Shown in pieces: positions 3,361-48,793 of a DNA stretch of 64,000 nucleotides. This DNA is from an uncultured archaeon. GTDB lineage: Archaea; Aenigmatarchaeota; Aenigmatarchaeia; CG10238-14; SCSR01. A program made the translations under genes and the position numbers. The stretch lies in NCBI GenBank assembly GCA_964366355.1, contig CAYITO010000001.1:2459-66458 (forward strand). Reading direction: 5' to 3'. Numbering within the stretch: the stretch's first letter is position 1; every line of letters starts with the position of its first letter. The notes under the pieces are model-generated. The model did no database searches. It saw only the letters and a list, made by a program, of their open reading frames with translations, and was not told the DNA's origin.

Positions 3361-3421
3361 TTATTGTTTACTTTTCCTTTGACCAAAGCCTTAAAAACGG
3401 ATTCTACCAATAATTGAATCT

Positions 3422-4027
3422 ATGGCAATCGAGAAACTCTTCGTGAAAGAGGGGATAAAGGAATCCGAGGTAGAGGAATTTCTGAGAACCAAGTTCGAAA
3501 AGGCAGGCTACAGCCATTCTCTTATCGAGAGAACGCCGCTGGGAACCAGGATAATAATTTTTGCCCACAAGCCTGGACTGGTCATAGGCAGGAGCGGCAG
3601 AAGGATCAACGAAATTGCCGAGGAGATAAAGGAAAAATTCGGGTTTGAAAATCCTCTGGTTGATGTAAAGGAAGTGGACAACCCATTCCTGGACGCAAAC
3701 ATTATCGCAAACCGAATAGCAAGGGCAATCGAAAAGAATATCAACTTCAAGAAAGTTGCAAACTATTATCTTGAAAAAGTTACAGAAGCTGGCGCAATAG
3801 GCATCTCAATCCATGTAGGCGGCAAGCTTGCAGGCAGCGAGAGAAGCAGGTTCCAGAAGTTCAAGAGGGGATTCATCGCTTTCTCAGGGGAATATGCAGA
3901 GAGGCTTGTTGACAAAGGAAATGCAAAGGCCAATATCAAACCTGGAATAGTTGGGATAAAGGTTTTCATAATGCAGGAAATGCCGAAGGAAGTAATCTAC
4001 AAAGAAGGCTCCGATGAGGAGCGATAG
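3422..4027 (+). CDS. rps3p: 30S ribosomal protein S3 (uS3), KH domain
   Basis: ..GLVIGRSGRRINEIAEEIKEKFG.. KH motif, with archaeal uS3 conservation throughout. Confidence 0.9.
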   Translation: MAIEKLFVKEGIKESEVEEFLRTKFEKAGYSHSLIERTPLGTRIIIFAHKPGLVIGRSGRRINEIAEEIKEKFGFENPLVDVKEVDNPFLDANIIANRIARAIEKNINFKKVANYYLEKVTEAGAIGISIHVGGKLAGSERSRFQKFKRGFIAFSGEYAERLVDKGNAKANIKPGIVGIKVFIMQEMPKEVIYKEGSDEER

Positions 4028-34137: not shown

Positions 34138-34152
34138 TCTATCACAAATCAG

Positions 34153-34223
34153 AGCTCGGGAGGGGAATCGAACCCCCTTGCGCCGCTCTGCAGGCGGCTA
34201 CATATCCAATCTGCCACCCGAGC
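34153..34223 (-). tRNA. tRNA-Cys (anticodon GCA)
   Basis: Reverse complement is GCTCGGG-TG-GCAGATTGGATATGT-A-GCCGC-CTGCAGA-GCGGC-GCAA-GGGGGTTCGATTCCCCT-CCCGAGC-T. It folds with a 7-bp acceptor stem, a 5-bp anticodon stem, a U-GCA-GA loop, a GGGGG/CCCCT T-stem with TTCGATT loop, and discriminator U. CCA is not encoded. Confidence 0.8.
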
Positions 34224-36950: not shown

Positions 36951-37529
36951 ATGCTTAAACCAGAGATAAGAATACTAGGTTTTGATGACGGCCCTTTTGA
37001 TTCTAAAACAAAAACCACTCCTGTAGTTGGCGTTGTATATAGGGGAGGCAGGTTCTTGGACGGGATACTTAAAACAGACGTGGAGGTTGACGGACTGGAT
37101 TCTACGCAGAAACTGGAAAAGCTTATTAATTCCAGCAGGCATAAACAACAGTTAAAAGTAATCATGCTAGACGGCATTACGGTAGGCGGTTTTAACATAA
37201 TAGACATAAAACAGCTGCATGAGAACACAAACATCCCTGTGATAGTTTTCAACAGGAAATATCCGGACCTGAATTCTGTAAAAAATGCCTTGGACAATTT
37301 CGTCGATTCTGATTTGAGATGGAACCTGATTAAAAATGCTGGGAAAATAAAGGAATGCAAGCTTGGTGCCGACAAGACAATCTATTACCAGGCGATCGGA
37401 ATGGCGGACGAGGATGTTGAAGATACGCTGCTCTTGAGCTCTACGCACGGAGACATACCAGAACCCCTAAGGGTAGCTCATTTGATAGCGACAGCAATAG
37501 TAAGGGGAGAATCTTATGGACGCGCGTGA
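36951..37529 (+). CDS. UPF0215/DUF99 family protein
   Basis: ..RILGFDDGPF.. N-terminal signature of DUF99. Confidence 0.65.
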   Translation: MLKPEIRILGFDDGPFDSKTKTTPVVGVVYRGGRFLDGILKTDVEVDGLDSTQKLEKLINSSRHKQQLKVIMLDGITVGGFNIIDIKQLHENTNIPVIVFNRKYPDLNSVKNALDNFVDSDLRWNLIKNAGKIKECKLGADKTIYYQAIGMADEDVEDTLLLSSTHGDIPEPLRVAHLIATAIVRGESYGRA

Positions 37530-38049
37530 AACCTGGAAAAGGCTAAATGAAGGATGGATAGGAATTTTCTTCTCGATATTCTTGGGGGTAATCTTTGCGG
37601 CATTTTTCTATTATGTGGTTTTGGCATCTGTTTTGAATACAAGCTTGCCGGTGGTTGCAGTGGTTTCATCCTCGATGCAGCATGACAATGCCGAATTGAC
37701 GCATTACAGCGTGTTGCAGAGAGCCTACAGTTATTCAAGAGCTGAGATTGATTCATGGCCAGCGGCAGGCGGATTCGCTATAGGTGATATGCCTGTTGTT
37801 CAGGGTTCGGATAGCTACAAGATAGGCGATGTGATAGTGTATAGTGTAGAGAGCCAGCCAGCGCCGATAATCCACAGGATAATAAAAGTCAACGACGACG
37901 GGACCTTCCAGACAAAGGGGGACAACAACCTCAGCCAGTTGCCGTACGAATCCTCGGTCAGCAAGAGCCAAATAAGCGGCAAAGTAATCTTTATAATTCC
38001 CAAACTCGGATATGTAAAGGTATTAGCTTCCAAAATCTTCGGTATTTGA
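37516..38049 (+). CDS. Signal peptidase I, archaeal/eukaryotic type (S26B, Sec11-like)
   Basis: TM anchor, ..VVSSSMQ.. (catalytic Ser box), ..GDVIVY.., ..IIHRIIKVNDDGTFQTKGDNN.. (His box). Confidence 0.75.
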   Translation: MDARETWKRLNEGWIGIFFSIFLGVIFAAFFYYVVLASVLNTSLPVVAVVSSSMQHDNAELTHYSVLQRAYSYSRAEIDSWPAAGGFAIGDMPVVQGSDSYKIGDVIVYSVESQPAPIIHRIIKVNDDGTFQTKGDNNLSQLPYESSVSKSQISGKVIFIIPKLGYVKVLASKIFGI

Positions 38050-38050
38050 T

Positions 38051-38383
38051 ATGATTAAGTTCTGCGCAAAATGCGGCAATCTTCTGGTAATTGAGAGGAA
38101 AGGCAAGAGGACATTTTTGATCTGCAAGAAAGGGCACAAGCAGACAAAATTAAAGCGCGAAAAAATTGTGATATCGGAGCATATTGCAGACCAGAAGAGG
38201 GGAATAGTTGTCATGGGCAAGGACGAGGGTATAGCAGAATTGCCGACGACAAAGATAATGTGTCCTAAGTGCGAGCACATGGAAGCTCATTGGTGGATGC
38301 AGCAGACAAGAACTGCTGATGAGCCGCCGACATTGTTCTACAGATGCAAGAAATGCGGTTACAGCTGGAGAAGTTACGGTTAA
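38051..38383 (+). CDS. tfs: Transcription factor S / RNAP subunit M (TFIIS-type Zn ribbon)
   Basis: N-terminal CAKCGN Zn ribbon. C-terminal ..CPKCEH..QTRTADEPPTLFYRCKKCGYSWR.. TFIIS acidic hairpin. Confidence 0.85.
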   Translation: MIKFCAKCGNLLVIERKGKRTFLICKKGHKQTKLKREKIVISEHIADQKRGIVVMGKDEGIAELPTTKIMCPKCEHMEAHWWMQQTRTADEPPTLFYRCKKCGYSWRSYG

Positions 38384-38386
38384 ATT

Positions 38387-40573
38387 TTACGGCGAAACAA
38401 TCCCAGACGCCGTGTCATTGTATCCTGTTGAGTTTACAGTGACATTTGTTGGATATACCCCGCCGCTAGAATAATTGGTTTCAATTACGATGAACAAGGG
38501 CTCTGTAGTGTTTAATGTCACATCTTGATTGGATGATATGCTTTGGGCATCAGTCTTGAACAGCCATGAAACCGCCCTCTGGCCTATGTTGTTTACTGCG
38601 GTAATTAATTGTATAGTGCTGCCCTGGCTTTCCGAGAATGTGGAATGCTCGGTTATCTCAACCATCTTTACGACGAACCTGTCGACAAGAGAATCGAGGA
38701 AAGAGCCGCTGTATGCGTTTATTGTGTTTGACTTGTTGCCTTGGGTTGTGTAGTTGTGCCTGTGGGAGACATTGGTCGCCCCGCCTCTTGGCAAGGTTGA
38801 GATGTTACTGTTGGTGACGCTAGGATCAGTCATGTTCCAAGAAACAGCCAAGTCCTGCGGCCAGTAGTTCTTGATTGTGAAGTTGGTTGTCCTGTTGGTC
38901 TCCCTCTCCCTATAGCTGTTGTAGTTTTCTATTTCTATAGATTTCAAAGTAAATGTCTCATTGAATCTGTCGCTTAAGCCTCCGGAAGAAACTACTACAG
39001 AAACATTCTTATCTCCCTCCGTTGTGTAGGTTATATCCTGTGTTATTTGTCTTGACTGGTTTGTGGCTAATGTAAGAGAGTTTGAAAAGGTCTGCCCATC
39101 ACTGATGATGTGCCATGTTATCGTAGATGGATAATAGTAATTTGTGATGTTGAACTTTACCAGCCTATTGTTTCCTGATAGCGAGCTCGCATTGTAGTCT
39201 TCTATAGCTATTCCCTTGATTTCAAAATTGATTGTCTTTGAATGGTTGCCATCTGTTGAATTTGCAATGCAAGTGAAAGTCTTCTTCCCTGGCAATGAGT
39301 AATTATAATTAAATGTGATGTTTCTGTATTCCTTGGCAGCCATGGTGAATGAGGAGTTGGACGACCTCCCTTCGCTGCAGTCCCAATTGACGCTTGAAGA
39401 CGCGACATCCATGTCGTTGAATATCTGCAGGCTGAAGTTCACCAAAGTCCTGTCTTGGTTGGGAGTTGACAAGTCCGTTATCTTGATTCCAAACTTTGCA
39501 TTTAGATTTTCAAAATCTACTGAATTGCTTGCTGAGCGTCCAGTGATATTTATCCTGTAGTCTCCTGCGCTGGTGTAGTTGTTCGCGGCTACAACCAATA
39601 TAGATTCGTTGTTCAGGATGTCGAATGCGATTGCTGAATTGACCAGTATGGTGCCGAAGTCTATGCTCCAAGCGCCGCTGGTTGCAGTTGTGTTCTTCTC
39701 GTTAGCAAGGTAGAATTGAATTGTTCTTGTCCTGTTGGTTGAATAGAGCTCTCCTTGGTTGATTACATCTATTCCTGCATCGCCAGTCACTATTTGGAAT
39801 GGCGCATGGACTGGAGTTCCGTTGTAGACGAACTTGGTCGTGTTGATGCTGTTCCTGACAATTTTCAGGATGTTGCCTATTGCATTGTAGGAATAGTAGA
39901 ATGTCTGACCACCTAAGCTGGCATTTACTAGCCTGTCCAAGAAATCATAGGTCATGTTGTACGTCCTGCCGTTTGCCTTGTCGTCTATCACAATGATGTT
40001 GCCAACCTTGTCATAGTAGTAAGTCAGATTTTGTACGCTTCCTGTCCTTATCTGCGCCAGCCTCGCATTCTGGGAGTCGTATGAGAACTCAGTAACCCTT
40101 GTATTTGCATAAGTTCTATTTAGAGGATTGTCGAACGCGTTGTGGAATGTGCTGTTGATAAAATCAATTATTTTTGATATCTTGCTCTGGTTGTTGTAGT
40201 TGTAGTCCGTGGTTATGCCTGGGCTGAGCGTTTGTTTCACCAGCCTGTCCATGGAGTCGTAGTAGTTCCTTTTCTCGAAAATGATTCCGTCTATGGTTCT
40301 AGTTTCTTTAGTTACTCTGAGCTTGTCATCGTATTCGTATTTGAATGTTGAGTTGCTGAAGGTGATGTTGGTTAATGTCCCCTCGTAATCCTTGTCGTAT
40401 GCATAGGTGATGTTTATACTTGTCATGTTTTTCGTAAGTATTCTGTTCAATGCATCGTAGGATATGTTCACTTGGTTTGTTGGGTTGTCGTAGGTGAGAT
40501 TTTGCACAGAGGCTACGGCTAATTGTGGCAATGCTAGCAAAAACAAAATAAAAACTATTGTTTCAGTTTTCAT
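38387..40573 (-). CDS. Secreted YD-repeat protein with tandem Ig/PKD-like, N-glycosylation-sequon-rich C-terminal repeats
   Basis: Signal peptide MKTETIVFILFLLALPQLAVA. N-terminal RHS/YD-type repeats (..YAYDKDY.., ..YYDSMDRLV.., ..YDFLDRLV..). The C-terminal half has ~100-aa internal repeats with very many N-x-S/T. Confidence 0.7.
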   Translation of the reverse strand: MKTETIVFILFLLALPQLAVASVQNLTYDNPTNQVNISYDALNRILTKNMTSINITYAYDKDYEGTLTNITFSNSTFKYEYDDKLRVTKETRTIDGIIFEKRNYYDSMDRLVKQTLSPGITTDYNYNNQSKISKIIDFINSTFHNAFDNPLNRTYANTRVTEFSYDSQNARLAQIRTGSVQNLTYYYDKVGNIIVIDDKANGRTYNMTYDFLDRLVNASLGGQTFYYSYNAIGNILKIVRNSINTTKFVYNGTPVHAPFQIVTGDAGIDVINQGELYSTNRTRTIQFYLANEKNTTATSGAWSIDFGTILVNSAIAFDILNNESILVVAANNYTSAGDYRINITGRSASNSVDFENLNAKFGIKITDLSTPNQDRTLVNFSLQIFNDMDVASSSVNWDCSEGRSSNSSFTMAAKEYRNITFNYNYSLPGKKTFTCIANSTDGNHSKTINFEIKGIAIEDYNASSLSGNNRLVKFNITNYYYPSTITWHIISDGQTFSNSLTLATNQSRQITQDITYTTEGDKNVSVVVSSGGLSDRFNETFTLKSIEIENYNSYRERETNRTTNFTIKNYWPQDLAVSWNMTDPSVTNSNISTLPRGGATNVSHRHNYTTQGNKSNTINAYSGSFLDSLVDRFVVKMVEITEHSTFSESQGSTIQLITAVNNIGQRAVSWLFKTDAQSISSNQDVTLNTTEPLFIVIETNYSSGGVYPTNVTVNSTGYNDTASGIVSP

Positions 40574-40877
40574 ATAAGCCTCTTTTAATCCTCTGACCGA
40601 ACGGGTCGTAGGAGTATTCTTCAACGATTGGGAAAGTTGCGTCTATTTCTACCGAATAGTTTTCCAAAAATATTTCAAATCCGATTAGGTAGTGTGAAAA
40701 GTTGCCGATGGTGTTGTTATCTTTGTCTGCTATAGTTCCTAGAGTTTCGAAGATGGTGAGGTTGGTGGGAAAGGGAAAAGAAGTTTCAGTTGAAGGTTCT
40801 GTATAATCTAATGCCTCAGCTTCTTGTGTAAATAAAATTATTGTTAGAAGTAATGTAAGTAAAAATAACAATCTCAT
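40563..40877 (-). CDS. Small secreted protein ending in an Rhs-like YDPFGQRIK motif (possible Rhs-derived fragment)
   Basis: Signal peptide MRLLFLLTLLLTIILFTQEAEA. C-terminus ..EEYSYDPFGQRIKRG is identical over 9 aa to ..YTYDPFGQRIKIS in the large Rhs protein. Confidence 0.45.
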   Translation of the reverse strand: MRLLFLLTLLLTIILFTQEAEALDYTEPSTETSFPFPTNLTIFETLGTIADKDNNTIGNFSHYLIGFEIFLENYSVEIDATFPIVEEYSYDPFGQRIKRGLYEN

Positions 40878-41476
40878 TTTTTACTCTCCTTTGTAAAATA
40901 ATACTCTATGTTAGAGTCGTAGACTTCTCTAAGTCTGTGAGAGGAATATGTTTTGTCCAAAAGTCCAGTAGCAAAAACTTTTACTAAATGTATAGGATTT
41001 ACTGGTATCTTCCCACCGACTAAAACAGGTTTATGGTAATCTATATCATTTTTAGGTTTCTTGATAAAGTCCCATTTAAGTCCTTTTACATTTTTTCTAA
41101 ATGTTTCACCAAGATACATTCCTATATCGTAACATAAGGAAAGTGTTTCCTTAGACAGGTCTACTTTCGGTATATCCACATGCGGTTTTAAGTGCCCCGG
41201 AATTCCACTCTCAATTTTTTCAATTTCATTTTTAGTCAATTTTCTACTTGTTATGCGTTTTGCAAACCATTCACCTAAATATTTTAGAGACTCTGGAGAA
41301 AAGTTTAGTTTTCTAGGGTCGTATCCAGTATTTTGCGCCGTTTTTTTAAAAATTTCTATCCTTCCCGGTATAGATTTAACAAACCATTTTAGAAATTTTT
41401 CAGCTTCTTTCTCGGACATTTCTTTGAAGCTTCTTTTGATCGGAAATTCTATTAGTTTATAATTTCTTACGGCCAT
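40874..41476 (-). CDS. Candidate Rhs immunity protein (cytoplasmic, no signal peptide)
   Basis: 200-aa ORF overlapping the 3' end of the rhs gene by 10 nt. Position is typical of rhsI immunity genes. No known family recognised. Confidence 0.5.
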   Translation of the reverse strand: MAVRNYKLIEFPIKRSFKEMSEKEAEKFLKWFVKSIPGRIEIFKKTAQNTGYDPRKLNFSPESLKYLGEWFAKRITSRKLTKNEIEKIESGIPGHLKPHVDIPKVDLSKETLSLCYDIGMYLGETFRKNVKGLKWDFIKKPKNDIDYHKPVLVGGKIPVNPIHLVKVFATGLLDKTYSSHRLREVYDSNIEYYFTKESKK

Positions 41477-44400
41477 TTTATTTTCACCTGTGAAACAACA
41501 TACGAAATAGCACCTTTAGTTTGTTCTATTGACTTTTCAAATTCTTTTAATGCACCCCTTGTGAATCCAGACTTTCCAGTTATAGGACTTTCAAATAAAA
41601 CCCACTGTATACTTTTCTTTACACCACTTTGCACTAGTTCTATGTCTTTTGCTATTTGGGCTTTAAAATCTTTTGTTGCAGAAACTCTTCCAACTTTGAC
41701 TTCAAATGCTTTTCCAGTTTGCGGTACTATTACATCTGGAATGCGTTTGCCTTGACTAGTAGATAATGGTTGCTTATTAAGCACTCCTCCTTCTTGCTTA
41801 GCTATTGTGCTTTCTGAGCTTTTGCTTATTTGTTTGTTTATTTCGATTTGTTTGGCTTTTTCAATATTTCTACTAATATCAGTAATTTTACCACCAGAAC
41901 TAATCGCATTAATCCCAGCTTCAGCTCCTTTTACTACAACTCTCCCGCCAGTCAAACCAGGAGCAGCCAACCCGCCTATATCAGCAATCAAAGAACCATA
42001 ATTCCAAAGATTAGTTGGATCATCTTGTATATCCCGTATATCCATAGTTATGAACGCTACATCTACAGCAGATTCTAAGTATTTTCCACAAGGATCCTTG
42101 TACTTGTAAGGGTTGCCTAGCGCATACGAGTACCTATTCAGAAACTGCGGGTTATACGGATTTTGAACTATCGGATCAGGTCGTAACCTCAATCCCCACT
42201 CAGGCTTGTAAGGAACGTTGCAAAGCATGTAAGTGTTGGTTTGGTCTTTGAATTGTCCTGTGTATAACTTCGGGTCGGCAAGACCACCTCCAAGCAACTC
42301 CCCATAAGGCGAGTAGTAACTGTTCTCGACAACATTGCCATTAGAATCAGTAATCAACGTAGTGCTCCCAAGATGGTCTGGATGGTAGAAATATTTACTG
42401 CCATCTGGATTAACTCTCGCAACAAGTATTCCTTCCTGGTATACGTAAGTGAAGTCAAAAGTGCCAGTGGAATTTTTAATTCTCATTAGCTCCTTGAACG
42501 GGATGTATACTGTCGTGTTTGTAGTGTCATTCCTAGAAATCTTTATCCTCTGCCCGAACGGGTCGTATGTATAGTTTTCTAATATTGGTGAACTAGATGT
42601 ACTGCCATTCCTAATTTTTATTAACTGATTCAATCCATCATATTCCCTGTAATATCCATCGCCAGTAACAAGATTGCCCCCACCATTCTGCCTCTGAGTA
42701 ATTAGATTGCCAACAAGGTCGTATGCATAAGTCCAATTCCCCAAATCAGGGTCGCTAAGTGCAATTCTCCTGCCAAGCGAGTCATAAGCGAATGTAAACT
42801 TGTTGCCAAGAGCATCGGTAATCTTGATTAAATTGTCTTGAGTATCATACTCGTAAGAGGTGTTGTAGACTTCCTCGGAAGTTACGTTCAATACTGCATC
42901 TAGGATTGGGTCGTTGTTGTACTCCAAGACATTTGCAATTCTATCGTACCCATCAAGCACGTAAGCTTTCCTGTGGCTGTTCTCGTCGAATGCTGTAATA
43001 GTTCTGTGATTAAATAAAATTGTCTTGTTCGTCCCGTCTGGGTTTCTAACAAAAGTCACTCTACCCAGCACATCAAACGTGTAGTTAGTGTTGTTGACAG
43101 TAGCAGACGGCGTGCTCAATCCAGTACTAAAGCTATCAAAATATGGATTCTGCTCGCTAACAACTCTGCCAAGACTATCATAGAAAAGATTCTTCACAAT
43201 CTGCTGGCTGCCGTCAGCAGGTCTTTTAAATTGAACAAAGTTGGCAAACCCGTCGTAGTAGAAGTAAGTGTCGTAAGTCTTGTTGGCAGTAGTCCTTTGT
43301 GAAACTTTGATTATCTCAGGCGCAACCCCGTCGAATATGTAGGTGTAGTTTTTGGTAGGCAGTTCAAAGCTATCAAACGGCTGCACTTCCTTGGCAATCC
43401 TTCCAAAAACATCATAGTGATAAGAGGTATTCACATCATTCGAAAACTGCCACAATAGGTTCCCAGTACCCAGATCATACTTGTAGTCAGCCCTGTGAAA
43501 TAGCGCATTGGTAACCGCATCAGGATAAGTGAATGTAGTGTCCCTAAAGCCGAAGTTATATCTTACAACCCTTCCAAGAGGGTCTGTCTGCCTAACCACA
43601 TTCCCGAAAGGATCATAATCATACTTGACGACATGCCTTCCCCCAGTGTCAACCCAAGTATCAATTTCTGTTACATCGCCTTTAGTAGCATTCGAACCGT
43701 ATGGCAATCCATCATAAGAATACCTGACATCACCAACTTTGGTGGAATTGTCCGATGAAAATAGTTGATACTGCTTCAGCCTGTCGACAATCCATGAAGT
43801 GCTGTTGACAACATAGGAATACCTCTCGTACTTCTCATCTCCAGTTACATTGACATCGCCAAAGAATACACTCGAGACAAGATTCCCGAAATTGTCGTAT
43901 GAATAAGAGGCATTCGTCACCTTGGCGCCGGTGGAGTTGCCATCATGCAAATAATTAGCCTGCGAAAGAAGGAAAATCTTGAAATAGCCGCTGGTGTTGG
44001 TGAAATTGTACACGCTCTCATCCTTCGAGAAAATGCTGCCCGTGGAATTAAACACCTCTGTCTTGTATTCCGTCCCCCTCCTCGCATCATCCTGGTGGAA
44101 GTAATGGCTTACCAACGAGTTATCAGGCAGCGTCTCGTTCACAACCCCGAATCCCCTAAACTCAAAATCGTCATAATCGTAGCTGGCATTCGCATACGTG
44201 TAATTGAACCTTCCGACAACGCCGAATGCATTGGTCATGGAGTTGTTCTGCGTTGCATTCGCCACGACCCAGACATTGAACCCGATGTCGGAAACGTTAT
44301 TGGTTCCGTTGTTGCCGAATGACGTGGAGGCGGTATAGTTTATCGACTCTATCGCAATAACCCCGCCAAGCTCGTTGACGATGCGCTTGAGCAGGAAAGG

Positions 44401-46383
44401 CGTGGTCTGGTTCTTGATCCAAGTGAACTTGGTGCTGCCGTTGGCTATGAATATGTCCATGAAGCCGTCGCCATTTGCATCCGACACCCTCCTCCCAATA
44501 TTCCTCCCGTTCATTATGAAAACCTCAGGAGACCCCCATGAGTTGTTCATCGTCCACCCATTCCCATTATTCAGCCAAGTGTTCCTCGACGAAGTGCTTT
44601 CATTGAAGTAATCCTCAATAATGTCAACCAAACCATCGCCGTTTATATCGGCAAACCTAACCCCCCTGTCAGGATTGCTGCCAGTCACAAAATCAATCGG
44701 GGGAGCCCACACGGAGGAAAAGTCCGCCCAAGTGCCATTCCCCATGTTGAGCCACGCATTATGCCCGTTGTGCCCCTTGATGATATCAACCAATCCATCC
44801 CCATTAACATCCTCCAGCCTCGCCCCCGTGTCCACACCCGTGCCGTCTATGAACTCCACAGGAGCCACCCACACAGAGCTCACATTAGTCCACCCGTCGC
44901 CGTTGTTTACAAACGCGCTTTTGTTGCCGCCTCTCGACTGCAGTATGTCGACCCTCCCGTCGCCGTTGAAATCAACCAAATGAGTCCCGCCGTCAAAACC
45001 GCCCTGGAGAAAATAAACAGAGTTTGGTAACTTCCATGCGGCCGAACTGTTCCACCCCGTGCCGTTGTTGAGCCACGCCAGCCTCGTGTCAGGCGTGTTC
45101 TTCGACTGCACGATATCCATCAACCCGTCATTGTTCAAGTCCGCAAACCTCACGCCCTGGTCAGCATCGTTGCTGTCGACAAAATAAATCGGCGGGGCAA
45201 ATGAATTGTCAGGCACGAAATTGCCGTTCCTGTCGTTTACCCAAGCCCTCTTGTCCGCATTGATTTCCCTTCCCAGCAGCACATCAACAAACCCGTCGTT
45301 ATTGAAATCGACCAGCCTCGCCCCGTGGTCAGACGTCTCCACGGAAAAATCCGTGGGCATCACCCACTTTGTGAAAGACTTGCTGAAATTTGCGCCAGGA
45401 GAATGATAGTCGAACGATATCTGGTGAAGCAGCGAGACCCCGTCAGAGCCGAAATATTTCATCCTCCCCAAAGACGACAAGGACCTCTCTGCGCTCAAGT
45501 TCAGATATTCGAAGCTATAATTTCTGACCAGCTTGCCGTCTGCAAACACGTGAATATTTTCAAGCCTCCTGCTTTCATTAAGAATGTTCCCCTGCTCAAA
45601 CACCGTCCTCTTGTCAGGCCTTGCGGAACCCTCGTAGACAAAATCTATAACTCTCCTCCTGTCATTGTTGTACTGTATCTGAACCAGGTATGCGGCACCG
45701 TTGTCCTCTGAGTTTGGGTCCTCAGAATAATGGTAAAATATCTTGTTGTCGTGGGTGTCGTTAACCAAATCAACGCTCCACCTGACAGCATAATTCTTTC
45801 CCGTATTCGACGCCAGTTCAGAATAGTTGCTGTATCCAAACCTGTACTGCGTGCCGTCCTTTGCAGTAACAATCCAGTAAAGGCCATAGGTGTTGTTGAT
45901 GCTTGACGAATTCTGGATCTTCATGAACGACTCAATCCTGGTATGGAACAACCCGTCATTGCTGTCATAAACCAATTCATAAGCATTGCCGTTTAGGATT
46001 AGTTTGAACTCGTCGTCGGGCGTGCTGGCCGCCGTGCCGTTCACATCCCTGAACACATAGCTCTGCGTCAACTGCCATCCGCTGCCGAGTACTCCAGGCC
46101 TCTGCTTCACACTCTGGCTGTTGTACGTTATTGACAGAAATGGCTGCAATCCATTGGTGCCTTTAGGAACCTCTATGGGATACGCGTAAGTAGCCGCTCC
46201 AGTGAACAAGTTTGTGCTATAGCTCCCGTACAATTTCACCTTCGGATGCTCGGGGATATTGGCCTTATGCAGGTAAGGCTTGTAGGAGTCGTCGGCAGCA
46301 ATCGATGCGGGAACTAAAACCAGAAAACTGATGAGAACCAAAATCAAATTCTGGTTTGTTATAATCCAAATGCATCTCACCAT
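41467..46383 (-). CDS. Rhs/YD-repeat polymorphic toxin, TcB/TcC-like architecture (SpvB N-domain, FG-GAP-like beta-propeller, RHS shell, Rhs core, C-terminal toxin domain)
   Basis: Signal peptide MVRCIWIITNQNLILVLISFLVLVPASIAA. SpvB-like ..VKQRPGVLGSGWQLTQSYV.. Six or more D-x-N-x-DG-x-x-D repeats (FVDFNGDGRVD, FADLNNDGLMD, LEDVNGDGLVD, FADINGDGLVD..). Many YDxxGR-type repeats. Rhs core ..YYSPYGELL..YMLCNVPYKPEWGLRLRPDP..LNRYSYALGNPYKYKDPCGKY. Then a ~220-aa unique C-terminal domain. Confidence 0.85.
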   Translation of the reverse strand: MVRCIWIITNQNLILVLISFLVLVPASIAADDSYKPYLHKANIPEHPKVKLYGSYSTNLFTGAATYAYPIEVPKGTNGLQPFLSITYNSQSVKQRPGVLGSGWQLTQSYVFRDVNGTAASTPDDEFKLILNGNAYELVYDSNDGLFHTRIESFMKIQNSSSINNTYGLYWIVTAKDGTQYRFGYSNYSELASNTGKNYAVRWSVDLVNDTHDNKIFYHYSEDPNSEDNGAAYLVQIQYNNDRRRVIDFVYEGSARPDKRTVFEQGNILNESRRLENIHVFADGKLVRNYSFEYLNLSAERSLSSLGRMKYFGSDGVSLLHQISFDYHSPGANFSKSFTKWVMPTDFSVETSDHGARLVDFNNDGFVDVLLGREINADKRAWVNDRNGNFVPDNSFAPPIYFVDSNDADQGVRFADLNNDGLMDIVQSKNTPDTRLAWLNNGTGWNSSAAWKLPNSVYFLQGGFDGGTHLVDFNGDGRVDILQSRGGNKSAFVNNGDGWTNVSSVWVAPVEFIDGTGVDTGARLEDVNGDGLVDIIKGHNGHNAWLNMGNGTWADFSSVWAPPIDFVTGSNPDRGVRFADINGDGLVDIIEDYFNESTSSRNTWLNNGNGWTMNNSWGSPEVFIMNGRNIGRRVSDANGDGFMDIFIANGSTKFTWIKNQTTPFLLKRIVNELGGVIAIESINYTASTSFGNNGTNNVSDIGFNVWVVANATQNNSMTNAFGVVGRFNYTYANASYDYDDFEFRGFGVVNETLPDNSLVSHYFHQDDARRGTEYKTEVFNSTGSIFSKDESVYNFTNTSGYFKIFLLSQANYLHDGNSTGAKVTNASYSYDNFGNLVSSVFFGDVNVTGDEKYERYSYVVNSTSWIVDRLKQYQLFSSDNSTKVGDVRYSYDGLPYGSNATKGDVTEIDTWVDTGGRHVVKYDYDPFGNVVRQTDPLGRVVRYNFGFRDTTFTYPDAVTNALFHRADYKYDLGTGNLLWQFSNDVNTSYHYDVFGRIAKEVQPFDSFELPTKNYTYIFDGVAPEIIKVSQRTTANKTYDTYFYYDGFANFVQFKRPADGSQQIVKNLFYDSLGRVVSEQNPYFDSFSTGLSTPSATVNNTNYTFDVLGRVTFVRNPDGTNKTILFNHRTITAFDENSHRKAYVLDGYDRIANVLEYNNDPILDAVLNVTSEEVYNTSYEYDTQDNLIKITDALGNKFTFAYDSLGRRIALSDPDLGNWTYAYDLVGNLITQRQNGGGNLVTGDGYYREYDGLNQLIKIRNGSTSSSPILENYTYDPFGQRIKISRNDTTNTTVYIPFKELMRIKNSTGTFDFTYVYQEGILVARVNPDGSKYFYHPDHLGSTTLITDSNGNVVENSYYSPYGELLGGGLADPKLYTGQFKDQTNTYMLCNVPYKPEWGLRLRPDPIVQNPYNPQFLNRYSYALGNPYKYKDPCGKYLESAVDVAFITMDIRDIQDDPTNLWNYGSLIADIGGLAAPGLTGGRVVVKGAEAGINAISSGGKITDISRNIEKAKQIEINKQISKSSESTIAKQEGGVLNKQPLSTSQGKRIPDVIVPQTGKAFEVKVGRVSATKDFKAQIAKDIELVQSGVKKSIQWVLFESPITGKSGFTRGALKEFEKSIEQTKGAISYVVSQVKIKWP

Positions 46384-48338
46384 CACGACATTCTGGTATT
46401 TGCAATGAAGTTCTGCACATCGGTTGTGACATTTGCGCTGGTGGTCCTGTTTACCATCTCTAAAACATTCAATGCATTCCCAACACCAGGGACATTCGCA
46501 GGAGTCTGGCTGTCCGTGATGTAGTTGAAGGCCCATATCTGGCTTCCGACCCTTGTTGCCTTGTCGAACCTTCCCAAGTATTGCGAAGTGTTCGTTAGCC
46601 TGACATAGATTTGCTGGTCCGTATAGATAGGGACTGAAGTGCCGAGAGCATTTCTTATGCCGGCTATAATCGCATCCCTTCCGCTACTCTCGCTTAGGTA
46701 TGGAGATGCTGGAGGGTCCCCGCCGCCACTCACGGTAAAGACCGGAGTCATCGTTATCGTAAAAGAAGTGAGGTTGTAAATCCTCGGCTCCCCCACGCCT
46801 GCATTTGAGTTATTGTAGAAATAAATGTCATCATACTCGCAATCTCCCCCCGTTTTTTCAATTCCGAAATATGTGATTCCCGTAGCATCAGTGGTATTGG
46901 AAAAGCTGTGATTCCAACCCACATGCTCGTCTATGCTATTTAACCATGCCTTCCCGTAAAGCCTTTCCTTCAACTCTATTTTCATCATGTACTGGACATT
47001 GGTGCTTGGAAATGGAGCTCCAAATGTCTGTGCTCCCTGGTTATAATCATCAACCGCAAAGAACCCGCCATCTCCACCTACTCCAAACAGCCTTTGACTG
47101 CCTTGAATAGTATTCCCATTGTGGTATATGTCAATTCTGCACCTGTCTCCAGTACTTCTAAGCAACAGCTTTCCATAAGCCCCGACTGTCCCATTAGTTT
47201 TTGGATTGATTGCTGGAATATTCCTTAATGCAAATGCAAATCCAGGGTCACTCCCCATTTTTACAATTTTATTTGAAAAGGTCGGGCTTCCAGTAGTGGT
47301 AAATCCACCTCTGTCTCCTGCATCATAAGTTTCATTAGTTATATACCAAGTAACATTTCCAAAAGTTGTAACCGCTGAATCATTGAACCACACATGAACA
47401 GGATTTGTGTTCATATCAGAGGTTGCCCTGAAATTAATCTGCGTCCTGTTTCCAGATGTCGTGTTGCACCCGCTCAATTCAAGAGTCCCTATTCCGAATT
47501 TAAGAGCCGTATCATTAGCATTGTTGGTTAGTCTTATATCCTGACAGGCATCTCTAATGTCAACAGAAGCATCAAACCCAGAAGCCCTTGCCAGTTCCAC
47601 CCATATCGTCGCATTCTCAACCGAAGCGCTTGTCGATATGCCTATAACCTTGTTGTAATTCTCAAACGTCACAGCCCAATCAAATTTCTTGTACGTCTGA
47701 TTCAAAACTTTCACCGCAGGAATGACATCCCTCTTGTTCAACCCGAGCTGCCTTTTGAAGTATGTTATGTATTGAATCTCGATGTTTTCGTTCGGCTTGA
47801 GCCTTAGTTTTGCCCTCCCGTCCTTTATCTGGGTTATGTTCACCCATCCAGAGTCCACAAGTACCTTGTAGGTTGAGGGATTCCCGTCCACCTGAACCAA
47901 TTGTAGTTCGCTCCAAGTTATCGTTCCGTTAGGGAATGTCTCGGTGTGTGAGATTGTATTTTCAACAACCGTCTTATTTTGTACAACTACTTCCTTCAGG
48001 GTTGTATTTTTAACTAAGATGTCAAATCCGTTGCTTTGTTGAGCCACGCCTTCAAGCAACTCCTCCCATTCAAATTCAAACTCCTGTTCTGTCGGCAATG
48101 GGTTTTTAAGAGTAAATCGAATCGACGAGCCTATCCTGTCGCTCATTTGCTGCTCCCTTCTGACCTCCAACAGTTCAGCAAAGATGCTGTCAGCCGTATA
48201 TGCAGGCTGTGAAAAGACTTGAGATGCTAAAGCCAAGGTTAGCAAAGACGCAATTAGAAAAAAGGCGGTAAAGAATACTGATGCAGAACGGCTTTTCAAT
48301 TCGACTAAGCGCATTATAAATGAATCAAGCACTGTCAA
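46383..48338 (-). CDS. Secreted N/T/G-rich protein of unknown function, stop overlapping the rhs start
   Basis: Signal peptide ..VFFTAFFLIASLLTLALASQVFSQPAYTA. Its stop TGA overlaps the rhs start ATG by 1 nt. Confidence 0.6.
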   Translation of the reverse strand: MTVLDSFIMRLVELKSRSASVFFTAFFLIASLLTLALASQVFSQPAYTADSIFAELLEVRREQQMSDRIGSSIRFTLKNPLPTEQEFEFEWEELLEGVAQQSNGFDILVKNTTLKEVVVQNKTVVENTISHTETFPNGTITWSELQLVQVDGNPSTYKVLVDSGWVNITQIKDGRAKLRLKPNENIEIQYITYFKRQLGLNKRDVIPAVKVLNQTYKKFDWAVTFENYNKVIGISTSASVENATIWVELARASGFDASVDIRDACQDIRLTNNANDTALKFGIGTLELSGCNTTSGNRTQINFRATSDMNTNPVHVWFNDSAVTTFGNVTWYITNETYDAGDRGGFTTTGSPTFSNKIVKMGSDPGFAFALRNIPAINPKTNGTVGAYGKLLLRSTGDRCRIDIYHNGNTIQGSQRLFGVGGDGGFFAVDDYNQGAQTFGAPFPSTNVQYMMKIELKERLYGKAWLNSIDEHVGWNHSFSNTTDATGITYFGIEKTGGDCEYDDIYFYNNSNAGVGEPRIYNLTSFTITMTPVFTVSGGGDPPASPYLSESSGRDAIIAGIRNALGTSVPIYTDQQIYVRLTNTSQYLGRFDKATRVGSQIWAFNYITDSQTPANVPGVGNALNVLEMVNRTTSANVTTDVQNFIANTRMS

Positions 48339-48472
48339 CCTACTATAGCATTAAATTCGGCCAATAAAAAGCTTTTCCAACTCGCAACCAAACCTGATTT
48401 AAAAACTTTTAAGCTTAAACTCCTCAATCATTTTTAACTCAATTGCTTGTCAAGCCTCTGGGGCAAATAACA

Positions 48473-48793
48473 ATGATAGAAAATTCACTTGAGAAGGTCA
48501 GGGAAGCGGAAAATCGTGCAGCTAAGATTATAGAAGATGCCAATCAAGAGAAGGAAAACATAATTGCTGAAGCCAAGAAAAGAGCGTTGGGCATTATAGA
48601 AGAACTTGAGGAACAATCAAGAAAAGACCGTGCGAAGCTGCTTGAAAAATTGAAAAGGGAACTAGAGGAAGAGAAGAGCGAGAAGATTGAAACCGCGGAA
48701 TTCAGCATAAAGAAACTCAAGACCGATTCTAAAAGCAAAACTTCAGGCCAAGTCAGCTTTCTGTACGAGAAATTTCTCGAGGCGATAGGATGA
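48473..48793 (+). CDS. atpH: A1A0 ATP synthase subunit H
   Basis: Short charged coiled-coil protein first in the atp operon (..LEKVREAENRAAKIIEDANQEKENIIAEAKK..). Confidence 0.65.
   Translation: MIENSLEKVREAENRAAKIIEDANQEKENIIAEAKKRALGIIEELEEQSRKDRAKLLEKLKRELEEEKSEKIETAEFSIKKLKTDSKSKTSGQVSFLYEKFLEAIG

Follow-up and report, generated by a model that had tools for sequence, protein, structure and literature searches.

How host-dependent DPANN archaea attach to their hosts and breach them is an open question, and to our knowledge the giant SPEARE proteins of one halophilic lineage are so far the sole molecular candidate. Among bacterial systems, two are of interest here. In the Tc (ABC) toxins, composed of TcA, TcB and TcC, the TcB-binding domain of TcA (TcdA1) is located at the C-terminal end. 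WapA from Bacillus subtilis consists of a signal peptide, an RHS-repeat shell, a DPxG-type cleavage motif and a variable C-terminal toxin, with an immunity gene downstream; we know of no SpvB, propeller or TcdB part in WapA and of no conserved partner gene upstream of it. Hamm et al. 2019 (PMC6642349) described the SPEARE proteins of Nanohaloarchaeota, which reach 8,553 aa. Each is a single polypeptide whose extracellular part contains laminin-G adhesion domains, a serine protease and a BC-toxin-like domain, the model of which is based on the BC subunit of ABC toxins; a transmembrane segment is also present, and a type III restriction-enzyme region lies in the cytoplasm. Finally, DUF2341 proteins encoded in archaeal type IV pilus loci were inferred to be pilus-tip adhesins (Makarova et al. 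2016, PMC4858521).

We analysed a locus in which a protein of 643 aa, ending in a conserved C-terminal domain (CTD), is encoded directly upstream of an Rhs protein. The locus belongs to a stretch of 64,000 nucleotides, called hereafter the window, and comprises the following features:

48364..48371, minus strand: candidate archaeal BRE/TATA promoter, an AT-rich TTTTTATT box with AAAGC ahead of it (read from sequence alone)
46383..48314, minus strand: gene of the CTD-family protein, 643 aa (alternative starts GTG 48332 and TTG 48338)
48207..48314, minus strand: N-terminal signal peptide or signal anchor, residues 1-36 (basic n-region, 18-residue hydrophobic core, ALA-SQ)
47679..48206, minus strand: N-terminal domain, residues ~37-212 (hmmsearch i-Evalue 2e-11 to 5e-4)
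47370..47555, minus strand: DUF2341-like segment, residues ~254-315 (hhalign)
46980..47342, minus strand: fast-evolving patch, residues ~325-445, within the unassigned region 318-536 (dN; variable alignment block)
46386..46706, minus strand: conserved CTD, residues 537-643 (profile search, conservation table, AlphaFold)
46381..46386, minus strand: gene junction GTGATG (read directly; kept in relatives L003 and L004)
41467..46383, minus strand: Rhs protein, 1638 aa, TcB-TcC-fusion-like (Pfam; PDB sequence matches)
40874..41476, minus strand: 200-aa ORF, candidate immunity protein (by position only)
38387..40573, minus strand: 728-aa exported protein (start MKTETIVFILF...), with YD/RHS repeats, then repeated beta-sandwich-like segments

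In its longest version, the first ORF runs from TTG 48338 and encodes 651 aa (46383..48338, minus strand, in the ORF listing), as described in a first-pass annotation of this DNA, which had placed its lower end at 46375, 8 nt past the stop; the ORF ends at 46383. ATG 48314 is nevertheless the most likely start, giving a product of 643 aa (MRLVELKSR...), since a relative with 79% identity begins at an ATG in the aligned position. In the public annotation the gene begins at GTG 48332 (649 aa). The candidate promoter box is located about 50 nt upstream of ATG 48314. When we compared the gene with those of two relatives, dN/dS was about 0.13, which corresponds to purifying selection and indicates that the ORF is a real coding gene.

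The stop TGA (46385-46383) and the Rhs ATG (46383-46381) have one base in common, A46383. This single-nucleotide overlap had been correctly seen, but the overlapping string is TGATG and not ATGA. An in-frame GTG at 46386 is an alternative start for Rhs and would make a 4-nt overlap (GTGA). We observed an identical junction in the two 79%-identical relatives L003 and L004, where the frame of Rhs does not stay open on its upstream side. The NCBI call for the Rhs of the window is exactly the 1638-aa product from ATG 46383, and the Rhs homologues of six other loci start with a hydrophobic signal segment followed by a conserved ADDxYKPYLHKA. On these three grounds the Cys-rich Rhs start at 46536, which had previously been judged less likely, can now be rejected. 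The pair is closely packed on one strand and leaves no space for an intergenic promoter, in agreement with the co-transcription proposed earlier; co-stoichiometric expression, proposed at the same time, cannot however be deduced from an overlap. Overlaps are found in 7 of the 37 same-strand neighbouring long ORF pairs of the window, and that between the 643-aa gene and Rhs is statistically not unusual there.

The Rhs protein had been described as BC-like, and its domains confirm this description. It comprises a signal segment (residues 4-33), SpvB (60-253), FG-GAP propeller repeats (~351-650), TcdB_toxin_midN (630-776), the RHS-repeat shell, the RHS core, NPYKYKDPCGKY (DPCGKY at 1430) and a variable tip of ~200 aa. 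The Pfam matches to SpvB, FG-GAP, TcdB_toxin_midN and RHS repeats have E values of 1e-9 to 6e-24, that to the RHS core reaches 23.8 bits, below the cut-off of 27.9, and the PDB sequence matches are TcdB1, YenB and T6SS Rhs. The tip departs from that of an 88%-identical homologue (P0175) after residue ~1527, and the protein appears to behave as a polymorphic toxin with a swappable tip. No Pfam, NCBIfam or PDB sequence match was obtained for the tip itself; our guess is that it may be a PD-(D/E)xK toxin (IPDVIV...FEVKVG after a GLTGG stretch). The 200-aa ORF, which overlaps the Rhs stop by 10 nt, has neither a hydrophobic segment nor a Pfam or NCBIfam match. The last gene of the same-strand block encodes the 728-aa protein. 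The idea that a 745-aa downstream ORF is an orphan Rhs toxin cassette proved to be wrong; this ORF encodes an exported protein in which YD repeats are accompanied by repeated beta-sandwich-like segments.

Residues 9-36 are the sole hydrophobic segment of the 643-aa protein, and in a low-confidence full-length AF2 model (pLDDT 30) a helix (4-33) covers this signal region. Rhs and the 643-aa protein have one N-terminal hydrophobic segment each. In the 643-aa protein we counted 20 N-X-S/T sequons for 8.5 expected from its composition, a density of 3.1 per 100 aa, compared with 1.1 for the other ORFs of the window. The lone hydrophobic segment and the sequon excess back the earlier description of the protein as secreted, and it is probably a surface protein with heavy N-glycosylation. 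Its composition (T 10.1%, G 8.1%, N 7.9%) is indeed N/T/G-rich, as had been stated.

The protein as a whole has no Pfam (even at E<=10), NCBIfam or PDB sequence match. Residues ~37-212 form a domain common only to a few family members (P0005, P0015, P0014). By hhalign, residues 254-315 match the DUF2341 regions of relatives (79% probability, E 1.5e-5), a homology that is transitive and seen only between profiles; a direct search of the 643-aa protein with Pfam DUF2341 (PF10102) was silent, with transitive HMMER links via relatives. In the patch ~325-445, dN is 0.27-0.41 versus 0.02-0.15 elsewhere, with an omega of 0.13-0.32. A lectin- or jelly-roll-like nature, suggested on the basis of composition, did not find support: Laminin_G_3 (PF13385) is absent from the protein by Pfam search, and with hhalign residues 318-536 score 3% against the Laminin_G_3 regions of the family, so that a ConA-like jelly roll is not borne out for this region. 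The proposed structure prediction was of no help for the full-length protein, AlphaFold with three close sequences yielding the unusable model mentioned above; in this model the part ahead of the CTD is strand-rich without long helices.

Broad conservation is confined to the last ~105 aa of the protein (~537-643), which we consider to be an undescribed domain of a likewise undescribed family. With an exhaustive HMMER search (E<=1e-3) we detected the CTD in 522 cluster representatives, in each case as the very last part of the protein. Searched by itself, the CTD had no sequence match in Pfam, NCBIfam or the PDB. In the window, the profile matches residues 545-647 of the 655-aa stop-to-stop translation, that is protein residues ~539-641, at 7.8e-41. 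The conserved pattern is E..AI..GI...(Y)TDQQIY.R....Q..G.FDK......Q.WAFNY.........E......I..V..FI..T, with E542, D584, W594, N597, E619 and I637 as near-invariant residues and E542, Q567, R572, Q578, D584, K585, N597 and E619 as near-invariant polar ones. The CTDs of the family contain 4.7 sequons on average, three of them at conserved positions. There is about one copy per locus, including one in the 64-kb window, and none of the 150 best matches listed is longer than 1,590 aa. Upstream of the CTD the heads vary (Laminin_G_3, DUF2341, Kelch, beta-helix, subtilase), Laminin_G_3 being present in 14 and DUF2341 in 10 of 32 members; the head of the 643-aa protein is unrelated to that of most of them.

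The 46 related loci are labelled almost all as Woesearchaeota, Nanoarchaeia, Aenigmatarchaeota or Micrarchaeota (DPANN). Word-indexed homologue searches returned three close relatives, short CTD fragments, unrelated Laminin_G_3 proteins and nothing further, and a genome scan with the alignment of close relatives gave no matches. The close relatives were all obtained from Hainich groundwater, in the 0.1-um filter fraction. In the window, the locus adjoins an A-type ATPase operon. These features identify the host as a tiny DPANN archaeon of groundwater. Neither the 643-aa protein nor Rhs has relatives in IMG/VR, and a viral origin was therefore rejected.

The AlphaFold model of the CTD (pLDDT 84.6, pTM 0.80) consists of a helix, four strands and a helix. 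Searched against the PDB, it gave no match at E<=1e-3 (TM 0.15-0.41, high rmsd); against BFVD, two matches had E<1e-3 (TM 0.19-0.53 overall, again with high rmsd, and 0.43-0.53 among the better ones), and the named matches were mostly nucleases. These matches hint, weakly, at restriction-endonuclease-like folds. One might then suppose that the CTD is a catalytic or nucleic-acid-binding PD-(D/E)xK domain, that its carriers are surface-tethered nucleases scavenging DNA for nucleotide-auxotrophic DPANN, and that the link with Rhs is incidental. Almost all named matches are of the PD-(D/E)xK type, both in the PDB (R2 endonuclease domain, MGME1, AF1548, Exo5, Bax1, RecU, McrC) and in BFVD (restriction endonucleases, Holliday-junction resolvases, VRR-NUC, DUF2726; best E 7e-4), and the many near-invariant polar residues of the CTD are in line with this idea. 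However, the PDB and BFVD scores given above are poor support for it, the order helix-four strands-helix differs from the canonical alpha-beta-beta-beta-alpha-beta core, and there is no sequence match to nuclease families. Moreover, the conserved acid is followed immediately by the lysine (FDK, D584-K585): in our reading of the conservation table, no D...(D/E)-x-K spacing is conserved in the CTD. We consider this explanation very unlikely.

The extreme C-terminal position of the conserved module, together with a location directly upstream of a TcB-TcC-like gene with conserved SpvB, propeller and TcdB middle, could also evoke a miniature TcA, in other words a pore-forming translocator that would dock the cocoon via its C-terminal domain and inject the toxin. 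This possibility is largely refuted and we give it hardly any credit. With 643 aa the protein is several-fold smaller than TcA subunits, it has no Pfam match to the VRP1, TcA_TcB_BD, neuraminidase-like or receptor-binding families, and no TcA is found among the 50 CTD fold matches listed or the PDB sequence matches. The strand-rich part without long helices before the CTD (low-confidence AF2 model) and the many CTD-family members that have no Rhs neighbour, the majority, also argue against it. The first-pass annotation had already set the protein apart from TcA and this holds: the 64-kb window contains no TcA-sized gene, and the protein has no sequence or fold resemblance to TcA.

We then come to the linkage between CTD and Rhs genes. 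A BC-type Rhs gene lies directly downstream of the CTD gene in 7 of the 46 species-level loci (L005, L008, L034, L038, L040, L044, L048), and the Hainich variants L001-L004 have the same order, as does the window. In the recurring pairs, identity amounts to 44-60% for Rhs and to 37-57% for the CTD, with gaps of -11 to +24 nt. In the reverse test, a metagenome scan based on Rhs, the CTD gene was directly upstream in two of the three Rhs homologues of the sample, while the 4 kb upstream of L051, a close Rhs homologue, contain no CTD gene. It was mostly via the CTD that the Rhs-linked loci came to light, so that only the forward count is free of bias. Among the Rhs-linked members the heads differ and the CTD is kept; four of them carry Laminin_G_3. 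In a rough tree the Rhs-linked CTDs are not monophyletic. Taken together, these genomic data suggest that the CTD family is linked to Rhs in a non-random manner.

Co-occurrence with Rhs, which had been put forward as a check, was observed in part: the pairing recurs across diverged DPANN genomes, but 39 of the 46 CTD loci are without an adjacent Rhs. The commonest CTD neighbours are S8 subtilases with CARDB/PKD domains or unrelated housekeeping genes. The core function of the family is thus not Rhs-specific, and the CTD is not a dedicated Rhs-binding domain. The proposal of a novel Rhs partner receives support from the recurrent pairing and from Laminin_G_3 in several Rhs-linked relatives, but not from most CTD carriers. 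Homology to an unrelated surface-protein family had been named as an argument against such a partnership. This argument applies by half: the surface-protein family to which we assign the protein is widespread in DPANN, but it is non-randomly linked to Rhs.

These observations bear directly on another explanation, that the 643-aa protein is an independent surface adhesin or a structural envelope protein, possibly of S-layer type, which does not depend on Rhs and shares an operon with it by the chance of clustered exported host-interaction genes. Besides the scarcity of Rhs neighbours, it is favoured by the clustering of CTD genes with other exported proteins (S8 subtilases, PKD/CARDB proteins), by the roughly single CTD copy per locus, also in the window, by the N-terminal signal and the richness in sequons, as in envelope glycoproteins, and by the frequency of gene overlaps in the window. 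On the other hand, BC-like Rhs genes are rare, and to find one immediately adjacent in 7 of the 46 species-level loci, as well as in 2 of the 3 loci seeded by Rhs, is far above chance for a genome of ~1000 genes, and heads as diverse as lectin, Kelch and subtilase do not suit a lattice former of S-layer type. We regard this explanation as rather unlikely; if the pair merely shares an operon, all that is left of the finding is a new family of domains in surface proteins of DPANN.

The best explanation, which we advance tentatively, is that this modular protein acts at the cell surface as an adhesin or in docking, and that it is expressed together with a polymorphic Rhs toxin, without a TcA-type channel. 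Its presence in one operon with an Rhs "cocoon" toxin makes the role of adhesion partner possible, and the 643-aa protein is plausibly the targeting or adhesion partner of the toxin; it may also associate physically with Rhs. The operon has the 643-aa gene as first cistron and Rhs as second, with the probable immunity gene after them, and Rhs is a Sec-exported cocoon of TcB-TcC-fusion type with a swappable C-terminal toxin tip. According to the most likely mechanism, both proteins would be exported together. The variable, locally fast-evolving N-terminal part would bind a structure on the target or host cell, and the constant CTD would be the docking module holding the protein either on the surface of the producer or on the Rhs cocoon. 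The pair would thus act as an adhesin plus a toxin container, with no TcA-type injection channel.

A more specific version, which we find improbable, gives the CTD family the part that the A component plays in bacteria. Its members would be small, modular and glycosylated subunits for receptor binding, with the CTD docking on the propeller end of the BC-type cocoon. At other loci the CTD would then dock on the large subtilases, and effector containers would be positioned on the host cell during DPANN-host contact. If this were true, it would define a two-part, TcA-free delivery system, an unfused ancestor or derivative of the SPEARE proteins. The compact, expressible pair (643 + 1638 aa) is suited to testing a TcA-independent use of a Tc-type cocoon, and the CTD can serve as a sequence marker for locating such loci.

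When we compared the locus with the systems introduced above, the likeness to Tc toxins was found in the Rhs of TcB-TcC fusion architecture and in the partner gene directly upstream. In contrast to Tc toxins, there is no TcA, the partner has 643 aa and is unlike TcA in sequence or fold, both proteins bear Sec-type signals, and there are a putative immunity gene and a swapped tip; with these last two characters, the locus fits polymorphic toxins used between microbes rather than insecticidal Tc toxins. Like WapA, the Rhs of the window has a signal, an RHS shell, a DPxG-type motif, a variable tip and a putative downstream immunity gene; what is new here is the presence of a CTD partner, and of such a toxin in an archaeon. 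With the DUF2341 pilus-tip adhesins, the family shares the character of large exported archaeal proteins for which an adhesin role is proposed, with DUF2341 itself in about a third of the CTD members considered and a putative DUF2341-like stretch in the 643-aa protein. However, no pilus genes flank the locus, T2SSF being found only at L018 among the scanned downstream neighbours, and the CTD is not described by Makarova et al. 2016 (PMC4858521).

There is also a resemblance, judged from the published description, to the SPEARE proteins: these too are from DPANN, and S8 subtilase, Laminin_G_3/DUF2341 heads and BC-type Rhs recur around the CTD genes. Here, unlike in SPEARE, they are encoded by separate genes of 600-1900 aa (643 + 1638 aa for the pair of the window), with no internal transmembrane segment and no cytoplasmic restriction-enzyme part. 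DPANN lineages of freshwater and groundwater thus also possess the protease, the lectin-type adhesin and the BC-toxin cocoon, each encoded by a gene of its own next to the others, the adhesin-type component bearing a conserved unannotated CTD found in hundreds of protein clusters. By analogy, the CTD-Rhs locus resembles a split version of the nanohaloarchaeal SPEARE proteins.

The gene adjoining rhs had been described in the first-pass annotation as encoding a 651-aa secreted candidate partner of Rhs, the 1638-aa TcB-TcC-fusion-like (BC-type) protein encoded directly downstream. We observed that the ORF is real, with small corrections to its start codon, its overlap string and its lower coordinate, which is 46383. 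We call it the CTD gene, after a conserved C-terminal domain (CTD) of its product.

46383 to 48338, minus strand: CTD-gene ORF in its longest form, 651 aa from a TTG (ORF listing)

Eight codons into this ORF, an ATG at 48314 begins MRLVELKSRSASVFFTAFFLIASLLTLALASQVFSQP, and P0002, a relative with 79% identity, has its own ATG start at the equivalent alignment position; the public gene call starts at GTG 48332 (649 aa). The most likely product, judging from this alignment, is a protein of 643 aa starting at ATG 48314. On the minus strand the gene ends with ...AGA ATG TCG TGA, the TGA being 46385-46383, and A46383-T46382-G46381 forms an ATG in the Rhs frame. The stop and start codons have one base in common, as had been proposed, within the string TGATG and not ATGA. 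A second possible Rhs start, the in-frame GTG at 46386, would give a 4-nt overlap. Since 7 of the 37 pairs of same-strand neighbouring long ORFs in the window overlap, the junction is of an operon type and nothing rarer. A Rhs start at 46536, already doubted in the first-pass annotation, was rejected: the frame of Rhs is not open before the junction in two Hainich groundwater variants (L003 and L004), homologues at six other loci start with a hydrophobic segment followed by the conserved ADDxYKPYLHKA, and NCBI lists exactly the 1638-aa product of ATG 46383. The CTD gene is under purifying selection (dN/dS 0.11-0.14, dS about 1). It is separated by about 105 nt (48339-48442) from a divergent ATP synthase operon (first ORF 48443-48793), and this spacer is AT-rich with TATA-like boxes in both orientations.

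Residues 9-36 form the only hydrophobic segment of the window protein, and residues 4-33 that of Rhs. The window protein contains 20 N-X-S/T sequons versus 8.5 predicted from its own composition, which is rich in T (10.1%), G (8.1%) and N (7.9%), as first reported; sequon density per 100 aa is 3.1 for the window protein, 3.0 for Rhs and 1.1 for the other long ORFs of the window. In archaea, such a sequon pattern is typical of exported, N-glycosylated envelope proteins, and the window protein is probably glycosylated.

No match to the window protein was found in Pfam, NCBIfam or PDB sequences, and a full-length AlphaFold model built on three sequences reached only pLDDT 30. Residues 14-354 share homology with just three of the family members listed (P0005, P0015 and P0014), in their N-terminal parts, and within this stretch residues ~254-315 align with the DUF2341 domains of these proteins (hhalign probability 79%, E 1.5e-5). 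For residues 318-536 we detected no match, including to the Laminin_G_3 regions of the family (hhalign 3%); the lectin or jelly-roll fold suggested from composition is not borne out. This stretch includes the fastest-evolving patch of the gene, residues ~325-445 (dN 0.27-0.41 and omega 0.13-0.32, versus a dN of 0.02-0.15 elsewhere), compatible with a ligand-binding surface under diversification. The 5' half of rhs and the CTD gene (44001-48000) also stand out in composition, with a G+C of 0.50 at 44-46 kb and 0.46 at 46-48 kb versus roughly 0.33-0.45 in the remainder of the window, which horizontal acquisition or amino-acid bias may explain.

We searched 1.84 billion cluster representatives exhaustively with HMMER and recovered 522 proteins at E<=1e-3, of which 191 also pass E<=1e-10. 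Among the best 150 of the 522, which are 440-1170 aa long, the match is almost always limited to profile positions ~537-642 and runs to the C-terminus of the target. We then scanned the parts ahead of the CTD, hereafter heads, in 32 members (31 relatives and the window protein, itself without a match): Laminin_G_3 was found in 14, DUF2341 in 10, Peptidase_S8 in 2 and Kelch repeats in 1. Since the match is confined to the C-terminus and the heads differ, the family is defined by its CTD; on these alignments it is a constant domain of ~105 residues behind interchangeable heads.

The CTD has no match in Pfam, NCBIfam or PDB sequences. Its conserved residues include E542, I549, G552, I553, Q567, Y570, R572, Q578, F583, D584 (100%), K585, W594, N597, E619, I637 and T640, and CTDs of the family average 4.7 sequons, three of which recur in position. 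An AlphaFold model from a 17-sequence alignment (pLDDT 84.6, pTM 0.80) consists of an N-terminal helix, four strands and a C-terminal helix. Foldseek returned no PDB match to it at E<=1e-3; the top weak matches are almost all PD-(D/E)xK-type nucleases (R2 endonuclease, MGME1, AF1548, Exo5, Bax1 and RecU; TM 0.15-0.41). In a viral structure library two matches fall just below 1e-3, the better matches reach TM 0.43-0.53, and those named are mostly restriction endonucleases, resolvases and VRR-NUC. The model would possibly have a restriction-endonuclease-like fold lacking the canonical catalytic spacing, and we make no assignment.

To look at conservation of the pair, we scanned one genome per GTDB species for the CTD pattern, which gave 46 loci with one CTD copy each, as in the whole window, and searched their surroundings by tblastn with the window's Rhs. 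Seven loci have an adjoining Rhs: in five (L005, L008, L038, L044 and L048) a full BC-type homologue, 44-60% identical over up to 1445 residues, starts -11 to +24 nt after the CTD-gene stop, and two (L034 and L040) hold partial homologues at contig ends. The four Hainich variants (L001-L004) have the same order. The heads of these Rhs-linked CTD proteins are not homologous to that of the window protein; four carry Laminin_G_3. In the reverse direction, JGI metagenomes scanned with an alignment of the Rhs N-terminus yielded three true homologues. In two (L052 and L053) a CTD gene ends ~90-100 nt upstream of the start of the Rhs match, and in the third (L051) a divergent unrelated gene takes its place. 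The proposed operon partnership is borne out, with conserved synteny. Given so rare a gene type in ~1-Mb genomes, we argue, from rarity and not from a computed statistic, that chance falls far short of explaining such adjacency. L003 and L004 also have a 53-54-aa DUF2080 gene directly upstream of the CTD gene (3393-3554 and 1126-1290, respectively). Their flanking genes differ from those of the window, and the pair thus has at least three genomic contexts within a single aquifer.

The CTD is not confined to Rhs loci. Downstream of it in the remaining 39 loci, we found a large S8 subtilase in 5, the other neighbours being unrelated (for example ABC ATPase, T2SSF, epimerase, DUF58, CDP-archaeol synthase, DNA polymerase B). 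Same-strand upstream genes very often encode large exported S8 subtilases or PKD/CARDB/Ig proteins, sometimes with a ~195-aa protein in between. A recurrent same-strand order, large S8 subtilase (frequently carrying CARDB, PKD or Ig domains), PKD protein, ~150-200-aa protein without family match, CTD protein, was seen in L006, L013, L016, L023, L031, L035, L049 and L050. In a rough neighbour-joining tree the Rhs-linked CTDs split into several groups.

We also examined Rhs and the genes downstream of it.

Rhs residues 60-253: SpvB (Pfam)
Rhs: FG-GAP repeats (Pfam)
Rhs residues 630-776: TcdB_toxin_midN (Pfam)
Rhs: RHS repeats (Pfam)
Rhs: RHS core (Pfam, sub-threshold)
38387-40573, minus strand: 728-aa exported YD-repeat protein (MKTETIVFILF...), last gene of the same-strand block

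The propeller region of Rhs matches TcdB1 and YenB, and its shell matches T6SS Rhs proteins. A tip of ~200 aa without family or PDB match follows the motif NPYKYKDPCGKY (DPCGKY at residue 1430). Compared with P0175, the 88%-identical Rhs of another Hainich variant, the alignment covers residues 1-1527 and then ends, the last ~110 residues (~1528-1638, window 41470-41800) being replaced; the partner CTD proteins share only 79% identity. This divergence is, as far as the alignment indicates, tip-swapping of the kind that polymorphic toxins typically show. The stop end of rhs has a 10-nt overlap with a 200-aa ORF that lacks a hydrophobic segment and is by position a candidate immunity protein. 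The 728-aa protein has a few YD/RHS repeats, then four or five repeated sequon-rich beta-sandwich-like segments, and only a weak family match (DUF6046). L038, L044 and L048 (12.9-13.7 kb) carry, downstream of their full Rhs genes, ORFs of 398-423 aa whose only match is to Rhs residues ~1236-1462 and which resemble displaced Rhs C-terminal cassettes like those of bacterial Rhs loci. The block is flanked by housekeeping genes (36951-38383; 34152-34223), namely Endonuclease dU (PF01949), a TFIIS/RPB9-type zinc-ribbon protein and tRNA-Cys, together with a 177-aa ORF without match.

The divergent operon encodes an archaeal A-type ATP synthase (subunit I by Pfam, A and B by NCBIfam). Close relatives of the window protein (100%, 79% and 79% identity) were found only in assemblies of the 0.1-um filter fraction from Hainich groundwater well H51, and remoter ones in MAGs labelled Woesearchaeota, Nanoarchaeia/Nanoarchaeota, Aenigmatarchaeota and Micrarchaeota. 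The ATP synthase operon and the relatives in DPANN MAGs together point to a DPANN archaeon as the source of the window. In L045 (JAKLDR010000054.1) the contig that carries a CTD gene and, after it, an S8 subtilase was binned as a Planctomycetota bacterium, and 'uncultured Methanosarcinales' is the label of several further CTD loci; such cases may be transfers, or DPANN contigs with a wrong bin or label. No relatives of the window protein or Rhs were found in IMG/VR viral contigs.

On these data, the window protein would be a modular exported protein, in which the constant CTD may do a job common to all contexts, such as docking on a partner or on the cell envelope, or another binding or enzymatic activity, and the variable head may confer specificity. 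In several DPANN lineages the CTD protein would be co-expressed with, and probably work beside, a polymorphic toxin, the Sec-exported BC-type Rhs; elsewhere its gene has large subtilase genes as neighbours. A targeting or adhesion role is plausible, if tentative, and mere co-location of two exported proteins is somewhat less likely. Besides Rhs, the 64-kb window has no ORF longer than 745 aa, and therefore no TcA. A TcA-like role of the window protein is so far excluded, to the extent that sequence, size and fold matches allow: of the idea that it substitutes for TcA, a channel is unlikely and a binding subunit possible. The initial observation was essentially correct and its interpretation is partly supported. 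What should last is a C-terminal domain family of DPANN that had gone unannotated and a recurrent gene pair of CTD protein and BC-type Rhs.

In the available part of a large survey of Tc loci in bacterial genomes, TcC is defined by adjacency to TcA or TcB, and that part holds no description of an archaeal pair of the CTD-Rhs type (PMC7861908). The closest described analogues are the SPEARE proteins of Nanohaloarchaeota, which combine a serine protease, laminin-G adhesion and a BC-toxin-like domain in a single giant protein, with proposed roles in host attachment and pore formation (PMC6642349). In SPEARE proteins this triad is fused, whereas in the CTD loci the same triad is spread over genes.
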